A stretch of 64,000 bases of DNA, from assembly GCA_965203555.1 (NCBI GenBank), contig CBDBCY010000004.1, forward strand, positions 1,184,001 to 1,248,000. Direction: 5' to 3'. Below, piece by piece: positions 32,354 to 58,356 of this stretch. The position numbers and the translations under genes were made by a program. Every line of letters begins with the position of its first letter. The stretch's first letter is position 1. The notes beneath the pieces were generated by a model that worked only from the letters and a program-made list of their open reading frames with translations, was not told where the DNA came from and ran no database searches. The DNA is from Acidimicrobiia bacterium (lineage in GTDB: Bacteria > Actinomycetota > Acidimicrobiia > Spongiisociales > ZC4RG35).

Positions 32354-32484
32354 CGGCCCCGTGGTATCCGCAACCGGGCGACTCCGCTGATGGTCCACTC
32401 GCGAAATCATCAAACCGGCGAACCCGCAGATTGTCACACATGACAGTTATAGTCCCAGATGACCACCATAGGGGAGGAGCACTG

Positions 32485-32748
32485 ATGCCGGCCACCATCA
32501 CCCGAGAGGAAGCACGACGGGAGACCCACGACAACTACGCCGTTTTTGTGGAGGAGATGCTTCCAGATCTGCTGGAAAACCACCCCAATGAGTGGGCTCT
32601 GCTCCGTGATCGCCGGCTCGTCGGTGTGTATCCAACGGGCATCGCTGCCAATCAAGCAGGCAGAGAGCGGTTCCCGGATCGTCGGTTCTCACTACAGGAA
32701 ATCACTGATCGTCCCTTGTTCGTGACTTATCACACGAGTGCTCATTAG
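32485..32748 (+). CDS. Small DUF5678-like protein
   Basis: RBS GGAGGAG; LPDLLENHPNEWALL..LVGVY pattern; overlaps the protease gene. Confidence 0.65.
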   Translation: MPATITREEARRETHDNYAVFVEEMLPDLLENHPNEWALLRDRRLVGVYPTGIAANQAGRERFPDRRFSLQEITDRPLFVTYHTSAH

Positions 32749-35569: not shown

Positions 35570-37135
35570 TCATCTTCGCAGCACCCGCCCGGGCCGGGTC
35601 CCAGTGAGGCTACCCGACCGCAACACCGGTTCGCCGTTGACCAGAACGTGCACCATGCCTTCGGCCAGGACATTCGGCTCGTACCTGGTCGCCTTCTCGC
35701 GAAACCCTGCCGGGTCGAACACCGCGATGTCGGCGAAGGCGCCCGGTTTCAATACGCCGCGGTCACGAAGTCCGAGGCGCTGCGCCGGAAGACCGGACAT
35801 CCGGTATGCCGCTTCGCCCGGTGTCAAGACTCCCTCCCGGTTGACGGAGAAGTTGTAGAAGTAAGAAGCCCATGTGTATGCGCCGTGGAAAGTCTTACCG
35901 GCAAGAGGACCGTCCGGCGCCATGGTGGTGGCGTCGGAGGCCGGCATCGACAGCGGGTGCGCGAAAGCCGTGCGGTGTTGAGCGGCGCTGTGACAGTCGA
36001 TCAGGACCATGAGCGACTCCATCGTCTCGATCGCTCCGAGCAGCAGGTCGTAGATGCAGTCCAGGCCCTCCTGTCCCCGCTCGTCGGCAATCGATCTGAT
36101 GGATCGTCGGCCGTAGTCGGGGTAAGCGTCGTGGTCGAGCAGTACTATGCGCTCCCAGTCGCCGCCCGCGCTGAGAATGCTGCGGAAACCTTTCATGCGC
36201 CGGCGTGCGTCGGCGTCCTCCAGCACGGAGGCGAGTCCATCGAGGCCGTTAGCCATGGCCCATGGCGGGAGCACCGAATAGAGGTAGGTGAACCCGAACA
36301 GGCGGGTATGCAGATCGAAAGCGACATCCAGGTCGCTGTGGTGAGCCTCATCGACCAACTCCAGGCACTGTTCCATGTCCGCATCGCCACTGCGGGGAAC
36401 CAGGTGGGACACCTGCAGTCTCACCCCCGCTGCCCTGGCGGTCCTGATGGCCTCGGCCACCCCTTCGGGCGCCCCGGCGTCCCGGTACCTGGCATGGCAG
36501 ACGTAAAGGTCATCCCGTTCAACCAGCGGCGCGCAGAGCCTGGTGACCTCCGACTCGGAAGCGCCGGCCTCGGTTGCATATTCCAGGCCGGTCGACAGCC
36601 CCCAGGCGCCCTCATCGAGTGCGGTCCGCAGGAGTTGGGCCATCTGGTTCAGTTCCTCTTCTGTCGATGGTCGATCTGTGAGACCCACGACGGCCAGGCG
36701 AAGCTGACCATGGGGGACCATGCTCACCACGTTCAAAGCCGGCGCCGCCTGCTCGAGTCGGGAGAAGTAACCCGAAGCCGAGTCCCAATCCAGATCGACG
36801 GAATCGGAGTATCCGTAGATCGCCTTCAAAGCGAGTTCCCGGTCTCTGATGGGAAAGCACCCGTGGCCACAGTTACCCACGACCTCGGTGGTGACTCCCT
36901 GGTAGATGGCGCTGACTGCCCGTGGATCCGCCAGAAGGGTGTAGTCGGAGTGACTGTGGATGTCGATGAATCCCGGAGTGACGAGCAATCCGGTTGCGTC
37001 CAGTTCCTCACCTTGACTTGAAGCCAGGTTCCCCACGGCAGCGATGCGTTTACCCACAATGCCTACATCGGCCGGTTCGGGCTCGGCGCCGGTGCCGTCC
37101 GCTATGGCGCCGCCACGGATCAAAAGGTCGAACAT
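35570..37135 (-). CDS. N-acyl-D-amino-acid deacylase family
   Basis: PGFIDIHSHSD, GVTTEVVGNCG, GLSTGLEY, ADIAVFDP. Confidence 0.92.
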   Translation of the reverse strand: MFDLLIRGGAIADGTGAEPEPADVGIVGKRIAAVGNLASSQGEELDATGLLVTPGFIDIHSHSDYTLLADPRAVSAIYQGVTTEVVGNCGHGCFPIRDRELALKAIYGYSDSVDLDWDSASGYFSRLEQAAPALNVVSMVPHGQLRLAVVGLTDRPSTEEELNQMAQLLRTALDEGAWGLSTGLEYATEAGASESEVTRLCAPLVERDDLYVCHARYRDAGAPEGVAEAIRTARAAGVRLQVSHLVPRSGDADMEQCLELVDEAHHSDLDVAFDLHTRLFGFTYLYSVLPPWAMANGLDGLASVLEDADARRRMKGFRSILSAGGDWERIVLLDHDAYPDYGRRSIRSIADERGQEGLDCIYDLLLGAIETMESLMVLIDCHSAAQHRTAFAHPLSMPASDATTMAPDGPLAGKTFHGAYTWASYFYNFSVNREGVLTPGEAAYRMSGLPAQRLGLRDRGVLKPGAFADIAVFDPAGFREKATRYEPNVLAEGMVHVLVNGEPVLRSGSLTGTRPGRVLRR

Positions 37136-37241
37136 GAGCCGGCTATTCCATTCGAGTCAAGCTCTCAGCCCGGCCTGGAGGATGGGTGGACAGGGTGTGA
37201 AAAGTCGACACCGGGCGGCGGCAAAAGGTGACGGTAAAGGG

Positions 37242-37510
37242 TTGCCTTTTGTCCCACTCCCGGTGCATATTGAATTCTGTCACGAAAACACCTCCCGGCC
37301 CGTTCCGACGTCACCGCGGCCGCCATACTTCCACGGAGGTCATATATCTGTCGAAGAGGGCGACTCCCGGCGGACCGGCGAAGCGCGCGCTCCGACCCTT
37401 GGCGGTGGTGGCGGGGGTGGGCCCGAAGGGGAGAAAGCGCTAGACGTTTTTCGCGAGACAGGAGTAGGTCTTCGCGACTTGGGGAGGATCCACCGTTCTC
37501 GCCTACCCGC
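37242..37510 (+). ncRNA. Dispersed element copy A: promoter plus candidate structured RNA
   Basis: TTGCCT-18-CATATT followed by ordered sequence blocks shared with 58011-58269 (minus strand); the repeat is seen directly, the RNA call is inferred. Confidence 0.5.
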
Positions 37511-37770
37511 GTTCCTCTTGACAACCTGTATCCCCGCCCTGCCATCAGCGTAGATGGCACAAGTCCGATGCCGGGAAAGGAGAAAAAATATGCGTCACCC
37601 CCTGACCAGAGCAGGGATGCTTCACTACCATGACAGGTGATATGTTACACAATGCATGTTGTGTAGCAGGCAGGAGTCTCAACTTTCGCCAACCATCTGT
37701 GCTGATTCCACAGAGACCCCTTGGGGCGACATGCTCACCCATGTCACTCCTAAAGAAAGGAGCTGAATAA

Positions 37771-38856
37771 ATGCCTAAGAACCGACTACGAATTGCCATC
37801 GCTGTCATCATCGCTTTCTCGATGCTGGCGGCAGCCTGCGGCGAGGAGGAGCCCGCGCCTACCACCGCTGCTCCCACGACTGCAGCGCCCACCACCACCG
37901 CGGCGCCCACCACCACGGCGGCGCCCGAGGAAGCACCCATCCGGATCGGACTGGTGATTCCGGACTTCACACAGAACGAATTGATCCTGGCTCTGAAGAC
38001 CGGCGCAGAAGACGCCGCCGCCGACTATGGCGTCGAACTGCTGGTGACGGGTAGCGGTAGCGCCCAGGATCTGGTGGCAGCAATCGAGAACTATGCGGCG
38101 GCGGGTGTTGACGTGATCGTTTATGACACCATCGACGCCCAGGCCCTGGCGCCTGCGATTCTCGCCCTCAATGAACAAGGCATTCCGGTGGTGTGCACGG
38201 TGGCCTGTGCTTCCGAGGGAGTCAGCGCCATCGAGATAGGTTACGACTATCGGGCTGACATGGGCCGACCACTCGGTGATTGGCTGGCCGCTTATGAACC
38301 CCGCCCGGCGAAGCTTGCCTTCATCGACTCCAACCAGGCTGATGAATCGATTGCCGCCATATACGCGGGAGTCGAAGATGGCCTGGAAGCCGGTGGACTG
38401 ACCGACGTGGAAAGGGTTGTTTCCCCGCCCACCAACTGGGACCGCGCAGCGGGTCTCGACGCAGCCAGGTCTTTGCTGACCGCCCATCCGGATGTGGACA
38501 TCATCGTCGGATTGCATGACCTGCTGGCCGGAGCGACGCTCACCGCCATGGAAGAGCTGGGATACAAGGAGACCACCTTGACCGGTCTCGGTGGCACCTG
38601 CGAAGGGTTGATGAACATTCTCGAGGGCCGCCAGGCGCTCACGGTGATCCAACCGCTCTATCCGGCCGGTTACCTGGCTGTCGAGGCGGCCGTGGAGATT
38701 GCCATGGGAGAGACGCACGACGTGGACTTCATCCCGATCGGAATGGTGGTCGTCGACAAGGCGTTCGCCGAAGGTGTGCTGGACGGTTCGGAAGAACCCG
38801 TGCAGAGCGGTGTCGATCTCAAGACGGCACTGGAAGCCGCCGCGGCGGGCTGCTAA
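37771..38856 (+). CDS. RbsB-like ABC substrate-binding lipoprotein
   Basis: Lipobox AAAC, TTAAP linker, IGLVIPD, NWDRAAG, HPDVD. Confidence 0.9.
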   Translation: MPKNRLRIAIAVIIAFSMLAAACGEEEPAPTTAAPTTAAPTTTAAPTTTAAPEEAPIRIGLVIPDFTQNELILALKTGAEDAAADYGVELLVTGSGSAQDLVAAIENYAAAGVDVIVYDTIDAQALAPAILALNEQGIPVVCTVACASEGVSAIEIGYDYRADMGRPLGDWLAAYEPRPAKLAFIDSNQADESIAAIYAGVEDGLEAGGLTDVERVVSPPTNWDRAAGLDAARSLLTAHPDVDIIVGLHDLLAGATLTAMEELGYKETTLTGLGGTCEGLMNILEGRQALTVIQPLYPAGYLAVEAAVEIAMGETHDVDFIPIGMVVVDKAFAEGVLDGSEEPVQSGVDLKTALEAAAAGC

Positions 38857-38887
38857 ACACGGCAAACCTATAACCAATCAATAAAGA

Positions 38888-38932
38888 TGGCGCCCTCCTA
38901 CCAATCCAAGAGGATGCGGTGGGAGGGCGCCA
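38888..38932 (+). terminator. Long stem-loop after the binding-protein gene
   Basis: tggcgccctcctacc...ggtgggagggcgcca followed by ctgccttt. Confidence 0.65.
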
Positions 38933-39003
38933 CTGCCTTTACCCTGCATTGATTAGAGTCGCCAACGTACCAAGAAACGGTTTGAAAGGTCTGCGGGTTT
39001 TTC

Positions 39004-56355: not shown

Positions 56356-57990
56356 TCAGGCGGACCGGGCTTGGGCGGCTAAGAGTTTGCGGTTGAGTTT
56401 GCCGGTTGAGGTCTTGGGCAGGTTTTCCACGTATTCGACCATCCGGGGGTACTTGTAGGCCGCCAGTTGGGTCTTGACCTGGGCCTGGAGTTCCTGGGTC
56501 AGTTCATCTCCCGCCCGATGCCCGTCGGCCAGCACCACCATCGCCTTGACCACATGGCCCCTGATCTGATCGGGAGCAGGGATGACGGCCACTTCTGCGA
56601 CTGCAGGATGGCGGACCAGGGACTCCTCGACCTCGGCAGGGCCGATGCGATAACCGGCGCTGGCGATCATGTCGTCGTCGCGACCCAGGAAGCGGATGTA
56701 GCCGCTGGCGTCCAGGGTGGCCTGGTCGCCGGTCATGATCCAACCGTCTCGGCGCATGCCCGCAGTTGCCGCCGGGTTGCCCCAGTACTCGAGCATCTGG
56801 GTGGGATCGCCCGGCCGCACCGCTATCTCGCCGATCTCGCCCGGGCGGATCTCCTCTCCACTCTCGTCCAAGAGGGCCACCTCTCGGCCCGGGTAGGGCA
56901 GTCCCATCCATCCGGGCTGGCCGGGCCACAGGGCCTCGCATCCACCCACCAGGTGGTTGACCTCGGTGAGCCCGTAGAACTCGTTGATGACCGCTCCCAG
57001 GTCCCGTTCGCTCCACCGGTGCAACTCGTCGGCCACCGACTCTCCCCCGCTGGCTATCACGCGGAGATCGAGGTCGAAGCGAGGACCGGGGTCGGGCACC
57101 TGCGCCATCACCTTGAGGGCGGTGGGGGTCAAGAAGGCATGGGTGACGCCGTTTCGACCGATGACCTCGAAGGCCCGCTCGGCGGAGAAGCGCTCCTCGT
57201 CGGCAACAACCGGGCGGCCGAAGACGAGAGCCGGAAGCAGTATATCGAGGAGTCCTCCCACCCACGCCCAGTCGGACGGGGTGTAGAACACGGTGGACTC
57301 GTCGAACTCCACGTTGAAGAACAGCTTGAAAGTGAGGAGGTACCCCTCGAGGATCCGGTGAGCATGGAGAGCGCCCTTGGGATGGCCGGTGCTTCCCGAC
57401 GTGTAGAGCAGCAGCGCCGGATCCTCCGACCACGTGTCGACCGGGTCGAAGTCGGACGGGTAGCCGTCGGCCTCGGACAGCGACCGCTCCCCCTCTCCGG
57501 GCTGTCCCGAGATGACCACCGTACCCAGAGCCGGCAGATCAGCGCGGACCGATCGGATCGGGTCGGCGTAAGGCTCCCCCACCACGATGACGCCGGTCGC
57601 CGAATCGGACAGGATGTGCCGGTAAGAGTCGGGACCGTACAGAATCGACATGGGAAGGGCGACAGCGCCGACTGAATAGACCGCCAGATGGAGAGCTGCC
57701 AACTCGGCGCCCTGCTGCATCACCAGCGAGACGCGGTCACCGGGCTGTACTCCCAAAGACACCAGGAAATTGGCGTAACGCTTGGCCAGTCTGATCAGGC
57801 GCCAGTAGGACCAGGTGTCCCGGCGCCCATCGCAGTGTTCAACATAGATGGCGACCCGGCCACGATCGTCGCTCCAGCGGTCGAAGACCTCCGAGGCCAT
57901 GTTCATCCGTTCGGGGATGTCCCACTCGAAGCCTTCCACCAGCGCCCGGTAGCCGCCGAAACCGAGCAGGTCTGTATCTGCAATTCGCAT
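56356..57990 (-). CDS. AMP-forming acyl-CoA synthetase
   Basis: YTSGSTGHPKG, EFYGLTE, GRDDD, GYRIGPAEVE, PKTSTGK; start set at ATG 57990. Confidence 0.93.
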   Translation of the reverse strand: MRIADTDLLGFGGYRALVEGFEWDIPERMNMASEVFDRWSDDRGRVAIYVEHCDGRRDTWSYWRLIRLAKRYANFLVSLGVQPGDRVSLVMQQGAELAALHLAVYSVGAVALPMSILYGPDSYRHILSDSATGVIVVGEPYADPIRSVRADLPALGTVVISGQPGEGERSLSEADGYPSDFDPVDTWSEDPALLLYTSGSTGHPKGALHAHRILEGYLLTFKLFFNVEFDESTVFYTPSDWAWVGGLLDILLPALVFGRPVVADEERFSAERAFEVIGRNGVTHAFLTPTALKVMAQVPDPGPRFDLDLRVIASGGESVADELHRWSERDLGAVINEFYGLTEVNHLVGGCEALWPGQPGWMGLPYPGREVALLDESGEEIRPGEIGEIAVRPGDPTQMLEYWGNPAATAGMRRDGWIMTGDQATLDASGYIRFLGRDDDMIASAGYRIGPAEVEESLVRHPAVAEVAVIPAPDQIRGHVVKAMVVLADGHRAGDELTQELQAQVKTQLAAYKYPRMVEYVENLPKTSTGKLNRKLLAAQARSA

Positions 57991-58010
57991 TAGGGCGATT
58001 CTAGAGAGCC

Positions 58011-58269
58011 GGCGGGTACCGTTTACCGAGCGGAAACCCGCGAAAATCACCCTCTAAATCGCGAAAATCCGGGACGCTTTTGCCGCTGGGCCCACCCCCC
58101 GCCGCCACCACCAGGAGAGGGACGCGCTCGGGTTGTCGGCCAGAAGACGCGTTCCGTAGACATATGACCTCTCTCGCAGAATGGATCCTGCACGGCCCGA
58201 GCGACGCCGGAAGGGACCGGGAGGTGTTTCGACTAAATCCAATATGCACGGGCGCCGTGACGAAGTCAA
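58011..58269 (-). ncRNA. Dispersed element copy B: promoter plus candidate structured RNA
   Basis: TTGACT-17-CATATT (58269-58241) followed by blocks homologous to copy A. Confidence 0.5.
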
Positions 58270-58356
58270 CACTTCACCGCCGTCTTTTTTCGCGCTTTTC
58301 CACAGGAACGTATATGCGCCGACTCCATGGGCTCCGTTCGTTGAGGTCGACCGCCC

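Follow-up and report, generated by a model that had tools for sequence, protein, structure and literature searches.

Two intergenic elements in the 64,000-nucleotide stretch of Acidimicrobiia DNA analysed here (the window), copy A at 37242-37510 on the plus strand and copy B at 58011-58269 on the minus strand, are two members of a lineage-restricted, high-copy and previously undescribed family of promoter-bearing structured-RNA cassettes. The genome under study (G000) comprises 3.42 Mb in four contigs at 62% G+C. The cassettes of the A/B family are probably small-RNA genes, the product being a putative trans-acting structural RNA of the DNA-damage response that spreads as a cassette.

A family of many copies

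Aligned with copy A, the reverse complement of copy B shows 76% mean column identity over 391 columns (window 37200-37560, plus strand, against the reverse complement of 57960-58320), and every sequence block that the first-pass annotation had listed as common to the two is present in the alignment. In a BLASTN search of the whole genome the two copies match each other at E ~1e-11, a likeness far beyond chance, and many further copies appear. The element had been described as present twice. This is an undercount: the recommended search with an nhmmer profile, built from ten copies with one iteration, gives 37 full copies at E<=2e-11 in G000, and partial copies besides. Pairwise similarity limits among the copies place the unit length at ~290 bp. 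A single pair exceeds 90% identity, at 94% over 281 bp, and all other pairs are at most 80% alike.

Is the family already known under another name? No covariance model of Rfam 15 matches the 64-kb window at gathering score, and a run in E-value mode with permissive filters returned only two chance-level matches (E 3.1 and 8.1). No earlier account of the cassettes was found in Rfam 15 or, by narrow searching, in the literature. The annotation had proposed a self-transcribed RNA of many copies, or an RNA-based mobile cassette, outside the known families. Its main point holds in view of the 37 copies, the covariation described below, the differing presence of copies in related genomes and the lack of any Rfam match at gathering score.

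The distribution across genomes is narrow and deep. Covariance model R1, built from a 32-copy MAFFT alignment, has 20 to at least 72 matches in each of the 16 other species of the genus. None of eight other genera of the same family was matched, and one of 16 genomes from other families of the order was (G033, with 65 copies). A second covariance model, R2, had 17 G033 copies and nothing else as its seed; at E<=1e-4, with strict filters and 20 candidates scored per genome, none of 150 other genomes of the class gave it a match. In public genomes at large, a scan by pattern gave at least 111 stretches. Eighty of these loci were examined and 30 proved to be full-length members at 45 bits or more, all of them in records titled Acidimicrobiia, Acidimicrobiaceae, Candidatus Spongiisocius or unclassified 'bacterium' bins. 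Among the matches listed there are also weaker, short ones in other phyla, which rest on the G tract used for selection.

Layout of the cassette

Read 5' to 3', a cassette begins with an A-rich motif, TCGCGAAAAAA or GTTGTGAAAAAA, which is followed by TTGACT, 1-3 nt, a TGTCAC-type element, N10 and CATATT. The motif G[U/C]C-(N)AAA-CACC lies 6-8 nt past CATATT, and then comes a hairpin, P2 (GGUCCG/CGGACC, with the loop UUCCGRCGUCG). On the 3' side of P2 stands AGGGAUCAUA, which the A/B subfamily has in the form GGAGGUCAUA. Next are a long hairpin that varies in sequence and length (P3), the motif GACC(C)..AAGG, and GGUGGNGGC-GGGGGNGGG. The 3' portion consists of a small hairpin, (G)CCC-loop-GGG(C) (P4), and one or two UUUUCGCGR motifs. 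From an upstream TCGCGAAA-type motif to past the last TTTCGCG the copies resemble one another; the limits of this similarity lie at -33 to -45 relative to the GTC of the promoter and at +53 to +65 after the G tract. The predicted RNA would be about 190-230 nt long. In the window the parts are placed as follows, P0 being the helix that closes the fold.

37171-37509, plus strand: copy A segment missing from the orthologous site in relatives (flank comparison; boundaries +/- a few bases)
37195-37228, plus strand: copy A A-rich motifs GTGTGAAAAG and CGGCGGCAAAAGG, counterparts of TCGCGAAAAAA / GTTGTGAAAAAA elsewhere
37242-37271, plus strand: copy A promoter; -35-like TTGCCT at 37242-37247 and CATATT -10 at 37266-37271
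37250-37255, plus strand: copy A PafBC-type -26 element TGTCCC; GTC at 37251-37253, then N10
~37277-37279, plus strand: copy A predicted start, from the promoter position
37279-37292, plus strand: copy A putative 5' strand of P0 (GTC ... CACC), hand reading
37296-37322, plus strand: copy A hairpin P2 (CGGCC/GGCCG); self-complementary loop core GACGTC at 37307-37312
37336-37348, plus strand: copy A junction motif GGAGGTCATATAT (AGGGATCATAT in most copies); GGAGGT pairable with ACCTCC at 37290-37295
37351-37395, plus strand: copy A variable hairpin P3, base TCG..GAG / CTCCGA, hand reading
37401-37421, plus strand: copy A G tract GGCGGTGGTGGCGGGGGTGGG; 3' strand of P0 (GGTG..GGC) at 37404-37412, then GGGGGTGGG
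37422-37430, plus strand: copy A small hairpin P4 (CCC-GAA-GGG)
37447-37477, plus strand: copy A 3' motifs, TTTTTCGCGA at 37447-37456 and TCTTCGCGA at 37469-37477; inverse of the upstream TCGCGAAAA-type motif
58284-58295, minus strand: copy B upstream motif GCGCGAAAAAAG
58241-58269, minus strand: copy B promoter; TTGACT at 58269-58264, CGTCAC at 58262-58257, N10, CATATT at 58246-58241
~58233-58235, minus strand: copy B predicted start, from the promoter position
58223-58233, minus strand: copy B putative 5' strand of P0, GTCGAAACACC (row L042 of the model R2 alignment)
58193-58219, minus strand: copy B hairpin P2 (CGGTCC/GGGCCG, with U.G); self-complementary loop CGGCGTCG at 58209-58202
58113-58192, minus strand: copy B middle domain, with an extra hairpin, junction motif GAGAGGTCATATG and variable P3
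58082-58112, minus strand: copy B G tract GGTGGTGGCGGCGGGGGGTGGG at 58112-58091 and P4 (GCC-CAGC-GGC) at 58091-58082
58038-58067, minus strand: copy B 3' motifs, TTTTCGCGA at 58067-58059 and TTTTCGCGG at 58046-58038

The 3' end has its own variants. At four G033 loci (L121, L128, L132 and L138) the 3' motif TTTTTTCGCGTTCT was noted, and it recurs ~25 nt upstream of the promoter in some copies. This G033 motif reads CGCGA-UUU-UCGCG followed by UUCUU and resembles a short terminator, a form not present in the copies of the window.

Evidence for a conserved RNA structure

The fold shown by the covariance models is a three-way junction closed by P0, followed by P2, the variable P3, the GGGGGNGGG run and P4. 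Helix P2, which had been predicted around the conserved TTCCGRCGTC loop, is confirmed. On the plain MAFFT alignment of 32 copies, P2 pair 32-54 is UA in 15, UG in 7, CG in 6 and something else in 4, and 0 of 500 shuffles reach its score. RNAalifold and averaged pair probabilities gave nothing useful on the MAFFT alignments. Mispairing of the G tract and the variable spacers account for the loss of signal, and covariance models were used instead.

Model R1 provides a distant comparison, as its 65 matches in G033 come from another bacterial family and keep the architecture at low sequence identity. There the RNA opens with ACCGUAAUUACC, which pairs with a GGN-repeat tract, GGUGGUGGCGGU, to form P0 (11 of 12 positions paired). 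The base of P3 covaries, UCGAGGC/GCCUCGA against UCGGGACG/CGUCCCGA, and P4 takes the form GCCC-NNN-GGGC. The annotation had the G tract able to pair with the 3' TACCCGC. This finds no support, and across copies the tract pairs with the 5' end of the RNA instead.

How well does a structure learned in one family predict pairing in the other? Model R2, in which P0, P2, P3 and P4 are annotated, was applied to sequences that it had not seen. It matched 47 of 54 loci of the genus. In these, 81.6% of cells pair, against 70.5+/-0.7% in shuffled alignments; 24 of 29 pairs change on both sides (14.2+/-1.6 in shuffles), and there are 139 compensatory cells (48.5+/-6.8). None of 500 shuffles reaches any of these measures, and slid controls give at most 0.075, compared with 0.232 for the true register. 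A second set of 43 loci, drawn from public metagenome-assembled genome (MAG) records and non-seed G033 copies, gave 35 matches, with 25 of 29 pairs changing on both sides and 102 compensatory cells against 32.2, a value that 0 of 500 shuffles reach. Compensatory change across copies is strong.

Pairs of U.G type are frequent in P2, e.g. CGGUCCG/CGGGCCG. As U.G would be C.A on the opposite strand, the structure belongs to the strand read from the promoter. In the A/B subfamily there are two mutually exclusive options for CACC, which can pair with GGUG in P0 or, as part of ACCUCC, with GGAGGU. The ACCTCC/GGAGGT helix that had been drawn around P2 is possible in A and B, and it is restricted to the one subfamily.

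A palindromic apical loop

The core of the P2 loop, CG[R]CG[Y]CG, is palindromic, as in CGACGUCG. Among 64 model-aligned copies the R and Y positions are A/U in 33, G/U in 25, G/C in 2 and A/C in none; four have no motif. Judged from the aligned sequences, the pattern is that of a base pair passing via a G.U intermediate, and the two positions are too close to pair inside one loop. Self-complementarity of at least 6 nt in the P2 loop was seen in 45 of 47 copies of the genus, in all 17 copies of the G033 seed and, in a third set, in 32 of 35. The corresponding means for shuffled loops are 0.57, 0.48 and 0.54, with a maximum of 0.77. These counts come from model-aligned copies; a regular-expression count over all loci was too noisy. 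Other palindromes take the place of the usual one in some lineages: three diverged G000 copies have GAGCUC, one subfamily of G033 has CCGAUCGG, and some of the public MAGs have CGGUACCG or GGUACC. The P2 loop is a predicted kissing-loop contact between two RNAs, which may come from the same gene or from paralogs.

A damage-type promoter

One paper gives the PafBC consensus, from chromatin immunoprecipitation sequencing, as tGTCgg(N10)tA(N3)T, with GTC strictly conserved across actinobacteria (PMC8635444). The element occupies positions -23 to -28 (the '-26 element'), and PafBC promoters are described there without a -35 element (PMC8635444). According to a second paper, the 13E12 genes of Mycobacterium tuberculosis, which are relatives of DUF222-HNH genes, are induced by DNA damage and hold the RecA_NDp motif (PMC3381160). 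A third source touches on PafBC only briefly (PMC11077062).

A regular expression for the family promoter fits 32 of the 37 copies at one fixed offset, with GTC in all 32. Copy A reads TGTCCC+N10+CATATT and copy B CGTCAC+N10+CATATT, so that both have the -26 GTC and the 22-nt geometry. The G033 copies have a TGTCAC+10+TAGGTT-type promoter. Most copies also carry a -35-like hexamer (TTGACT, TTGCCT or TTGAAA) 17-18 nt upstream of the -10, and the cassette promoter is read as a hybrid because it joins this hexamer to a PafBC-type motif. The promoters of A and B had been called sigma70-type. For copy B this agrees with the promoter scanner, which scored TTGACT-17-CATATT at 9/12 and called it, but TTGCCT-18-CATATT of copy A, at 8/12, is below the scanner threshold. 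A sigma-70-like character stands; what the first-pass annotation missed is the PafBC, or RecA-NDp, DNA-damage motif.

The motif can be compared inside the same genome. In the recA gene of G000, the control, a LexA box, TCGAACACATGTTCG, is followed further downstream by TTGTCACAG-N8-TAGCTT. A pafA gene (Pup_ligase, E 2e-164) followed by two WYL-domain genes represents the expected pafABC arrangement. The DUF222-HNH genes have TTTTGTCACACC-N8-CATACT (TGTCAC+N10+CATACT), with a leaderless ATG 7 nt on. The strict PafBC motif occurs 125 times in the genome, compared with 31 times in reversed-sequence controls, and outside the cassettes and HNH genes it precedes genes for RmuC, DnaB, two DNA methylases, a Cas3-like helicase-nuclease and DUF4007. 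As far as motifs can tell, the cassette promoter fits the PafBC type, i.e. that of RecA-independent DNA-damage control. Since its motif is the same as that of recA and the DUF222-HNH genes in G000, the RNAs are predicted to be damage-induced via PafBC.

Three further cases of such motifs stand out. One cassette copy (C4:2616403-2620200) is directly upstream of pafA, with a slight overlap with the pafA call, and its promoter may read into the pafA-pafB-pafC operon, the regulator's own. Within the window, 32430-32748 (C4:1216432-1216748) contains a PafBC-like motif, TGTCACACATGACAGTTATAGT, that ends at 32453; an open reading frame (ORF) of 87 codons with no Pfam match starts 31 nt downstream. 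Elsewhere, TGTCAC-type promoter hits at C4:1513538-1514138 (plus strand) and C4:286900-287513 (minus strand) both lead into a common stretch, ccagcacaaacatcg, and into ORFs, 185 and 175 codons long, that again have no Pfam matches. This pair may be another small repeated family of the PafBC-type regulon.

Empty and eroded sites in relatives

Comparison with related genomes reveals that copies have been gained, lost and eroded at orthologous sites. At the site of copy A, window positions 37171-37509 are missing in all five relatives compared (G002, G003, G004, G005 and G007); these genomes are complete or nearly so, and in them the flanking genes, at 82-86% identity, abut within 18-45 bp. The site of copy B is empty in G004. 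In G007 only the 3' 127 bp are left, from the G tract to the end, and in G003 a 3' part is found beside the downstream gene, with 3.5 kb between the flanks; G002 and G005 are without usable flanks for this comparison. The G007 remnant (C1:599763-599891, locus L148, ortholog of window 58000-58130) consists of the G tract, P4 and two TTTCGCG-like motifs. Its promoter, P2 and P3 are gone, which illustrates how a cassette erodes from the 5' end.

Are the cassettes, then, simply MITE-like (miniature inverted repeat transposable element) selfish DNA repeats, in which the hairpins would have a role in transposition, either as DNA or in the form of single-stranded DNA (ssDNA), and the promoter would be incidental or would disturb neighbours? 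Such an origin seems unlikely as a full account, although several features speak for it: the presence or absence at orthologous sites and the one decayed remnant; a copy number that varies from 20 to at least 72 inside one genus; and an inverted 8-9-bp pair, TCGCGAAA(A)/(T)TTTCGCGA, which flanks 8 of 31 copies and coincides with the limits of similarity. However, terminal inverted repeats of greater length were looked for, and none recurs. Nor is there a clear target-site duplication; at copy A, the sole resolved site, there is at most an imperfect AGCCCG/ACCCG pair, and the segment missing from the relatives exceeds the inverted motifs on both sides. Of the candidates for a cognate element that were compared, neither TnpB (in 7 of 17 genomes of the genus including G000, not in G033) nor DUF222-HNH follows the family. 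The copies are old, with all pairs but one at most 80% alike. Compensatory changes that include U.G, together with invariant unpaired motifs in two bacterial families, point to selection on RNA. A MITE-like mode of spread is compatible with small-RNA gene cassettes, and the two are not exclusive.

Neighbouring genes and candidate partners

In the output of a crude ORF caller, 26 of 37 copies lie a short way behind a gene of their own orientation, and copy B is a 27th by hand reading. The downstream gene call is co-oriented in 20 of 37 and opposed in 17; hand correction of overlapping calls changes the 20 little. Could the cassette be a cis-acting, damage-inducible promoter or leader module for its downstream gene? 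Only ~20 nt separate the end of copy B from an AMP-binding enzyme gene that starts at 57990, one copy is directly upstream of pafA-pafB-pafC, and the 20 co-oriented calls would be consistent with such a role. Against these stand the 17 opposed genes and the fact that the orientation bias concerns the upstream gene. The 16 co-oriented downstream genes that were examined encode an aminotransferase, a sugar-binding protein, an amidohydrolase, an aldehyde dehydrogenase, a PIN protein, a transposase, Pup ligase, Mfd and others. As these functions are unrelated, a leader with a common target is disfavoured, and a cis-acting module must be regarded as very unlikely.

The RNA might also be a guide or partner of a nuclease, either as an omega-RNA-like companion of TnpB or as a cofactor of the DUF222-HNH (REP13E12-type) proteins. 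The annotation had suggested that nuclease and transposase genes beside other copies be looked for. One of the 37 copies, a diverged one with its own promoter, does lie 75 nt past the stop of the only full tnpB gene. Five of 23 full-length DUF222-HNH genes are within 200 bp of a copy, where ~0.2 would be expected by chance (an estimate); the number of such copies is six if one beside an HNH fragment is counted. HNH genes and cassettes also have the promoter type and a TTTTCACAAC-TTAGTG motif in common. The distributions, however, do not follow the RNA. DUF222 is found in 40 of 41 genomes of the order irrespective of the RNA, with DUF222 genes to RNA copies at 2/29 in G004, 2/65 in G033 and 12/0 in G036. 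TnpB is found in 8 of 41, and neither in G033 nor in 10 RNA-rich species of the genus (17 genomes). These tallies of 40/41 and 8/41 include the unpublished genomes G027 and/or G038, neither of which matched the RNA and one of which, G038, has one TnpB match. The position of the cassette at HNH genes is inconsistent as well, being before, after or convergent. Partnership with TnpB or DUF222-HNH was rejected on the mismatched distributions across the 41 genomes, and a nuclease-associated RNA in general is highly improbable.

The two gene families deserve a record of their own. There are ~26 DUF222-HNH genes in G000, on C4 and C1/C2 (e.g. C4:1390757-1391983, 2092747-2094000 and 2820355-2821590), with a mutual identity of ~60%. 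Each has an upstream block, TTTTAGTG-TTTGTTTTCACAACT-TAGTGATA, a PafBC-type promoter and a leaderless ATG. The only full-length TnpB of G000 is at C2:86581-87918 (L031 1082-2419), carries OrfB_IS605 and Cas12f1-like TNB domains, and has no tnpA seen beside it. Two short TnpB fragments are at C4 375261-375568 and 2043367-2043573, and the number of matches in related species ranges from 0 to 15.

The annotation had also been reminded of type I toxin-antitoxin leaders. A locus of this type, or one for a small peptide, in which the Shine-Dalgarno (SD) sequence is sequestered, is barely conceivable. GGAGGT can pair with ACCTCC in A and B, and copy B has an ATG at the right distance. Yet the start codon is not conserved: ATG is confined to copy B and a few others, copy A has ATA, and TTG, CTG, ACG, AAG and others are found elsewhere. 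Spacer indels are of any length, and the distance from the junction motif to the G tract varies in such a way that no reading frame is preserved. In most copies AGGGATCA is without an anti-SD partner.

Three other candidates were tried and rejected. A Y RNA/Ro60 system has no TROVE match in the genome, while a control found Ro60 in Deinococcus. A sponge for 6C RNA was dropped, 6C RNA not being found in the genome. A role in R-loops or as a replication primer finds no bias in orientation, 19 of 36 copies being co-directional with replication.

One gene near copy A contains a recurrent segment. At the start of the periplasmic-binding-protein gene 37771-38856, ~100 nt (window 37830-37930) match many unrelated places in relatives at 72-97% identity and draw extra contigs in the read layout. 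This is probably a signal or linker segment common to solute-binding lipoproteins.

A trans-acting RNA of the damage response?

How might a small-RNA cassette of this type work? Transcription would start 6-8 nt past CATATT, from a hybrid promoter composed of the -35-like TTGACT and the PafBC -26 element. The RNAs would be induced on DNA damage via PafBC, along with recA and the DUF222-HNH genes. Through its apical loop, P2 could form an intermolecular kissing duplex, and the RNAs might thus act as homodimers or as heterodimers of paralogs. The invariant single-stranded AGGGAUCAUA, in the junction, and GGGGGNGGG, after P0, would be offered to a protein or nucleic-acid partner. The committed guess is a trans-acting structural RNA of the damage response that may have spread as a selfish or semi-domesticated cassette.

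Several points weigh against this proposal. With respect to structure, alignments A4 and A5 were fitted to the model structure and their pair counts are inflated as a result. The covariation of P0 is modest, with the outermost pair unpaired in 9 of 43 cells and an A.C mismatch common. Model R2 misaligns copy A, and the fold of the A/B subfamily is ambiguous because of the two competing CACC pairings. With respect to transcription, the cassettes do not share the lack of a -35 element described for PafBC promoters, and with TTGACT in that position their promoters may be constitutive, or PafBC may do no more than modulate them. The scanner found no canonical terminator in the copies. Metatranscriptome contigs cover neighbouring genes and none of 37212-37514, their depth being uninformative on expression; one RNA run contains 8% of the words of window 36000-39000 and two sister runs contain none. 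The palindrome in the loop might instead serve a dimeric protein as a site on DNA, an alternative disfavoured by the frequent G/U state and by the change of palindrome between lineages. Lastly, active transposition is not supported, since likeness above 90% is confined to a single pair.

A bolder and quite unlikely extension of the trans-acting RNA is a mobile, multicopy feedback module. A damage-induced RNA would self-assemble by kissing-loop dimers, perhaps into higher orders through its G run, and would feed back on the damage response, for instance by binding the Sm-like WYL domains of PafBC as a mimic or competitor of the ssDNA signal.

If transcribed as predicted, the cassettes would be the first non-coding RNA family linked to the PafBC (LexA-independent) DNA-damage regulon. 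They would also be unusually high-copy bacterial small RNA (sRNA) genes, at 20 to at least 72 per genome of 2.3-3.5 Mb. The family offers a natural case of how a structured RNA gene can spread in a genome yet stay under selection. For annotators, it means that dozens of strong damage-type promoters lie unannotated between genes in sponge- and coral-associated Acidimicrobiia.

Relation to known systems

With PafBC (RecA-NDp) promoters the cassette shares the invariant GTC, the N10 spacer and the nA(N3)T -10, in a genome where pafA-pafB-pafC is present. It differs in its putative non-coding RNA product, its repeated cassette form and its -35-like TTGACT or TTGAAA. The REP13E12/DUF222-HNH genes are likewise multicopy (26 matches), have the promoter type in common and are enriched beside cassettes; they are, however, protein-coding units of ~1.7 kb with a cross-genome distribution independent of the RNA.

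Natural RNAs that kiss by loops or self-assemble include the HIV-1 DIS and the OLE, ROOL and GOLLD complexes. The cassette likewise has a palindromic 6-8-nt core in an apical loop, whose sequence changes while self-complementarity stays. It has no sequence or Rfam relationship to these RNAs, and its dimerisation is predicted only.

Correia/NEMIS elements are promoter-bearing bacterial MITEs, i.e. short dispersed intergenic repeats with short inverted ends. The cassettes are similarly short and dispersed, with short inverted end motifs, an internal promoter and insertion sites that differ between genomes. They depart from these MITEs in their strand-specific RNA covariation, in unpaired motifs kept over two bacterial families, and in that no target-site duplication or cognate transposase was found.

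Sibling sRNA families such as Qrr, LhrC and csRNA consist of 2-7 paralogous genes with their own regulated promoters and common single-stranded motifs. The cassettes are also paralogous, each with its own promoter and conserved single-stranded motifs. They differ by their 20 to at least 72 copies, a longer three-way-junction fold, gain and loss between species, and the lack of an identified target-pairing seed. The family is best described as standing between multicopy sRNA genes and promoter-bearing MITEs.

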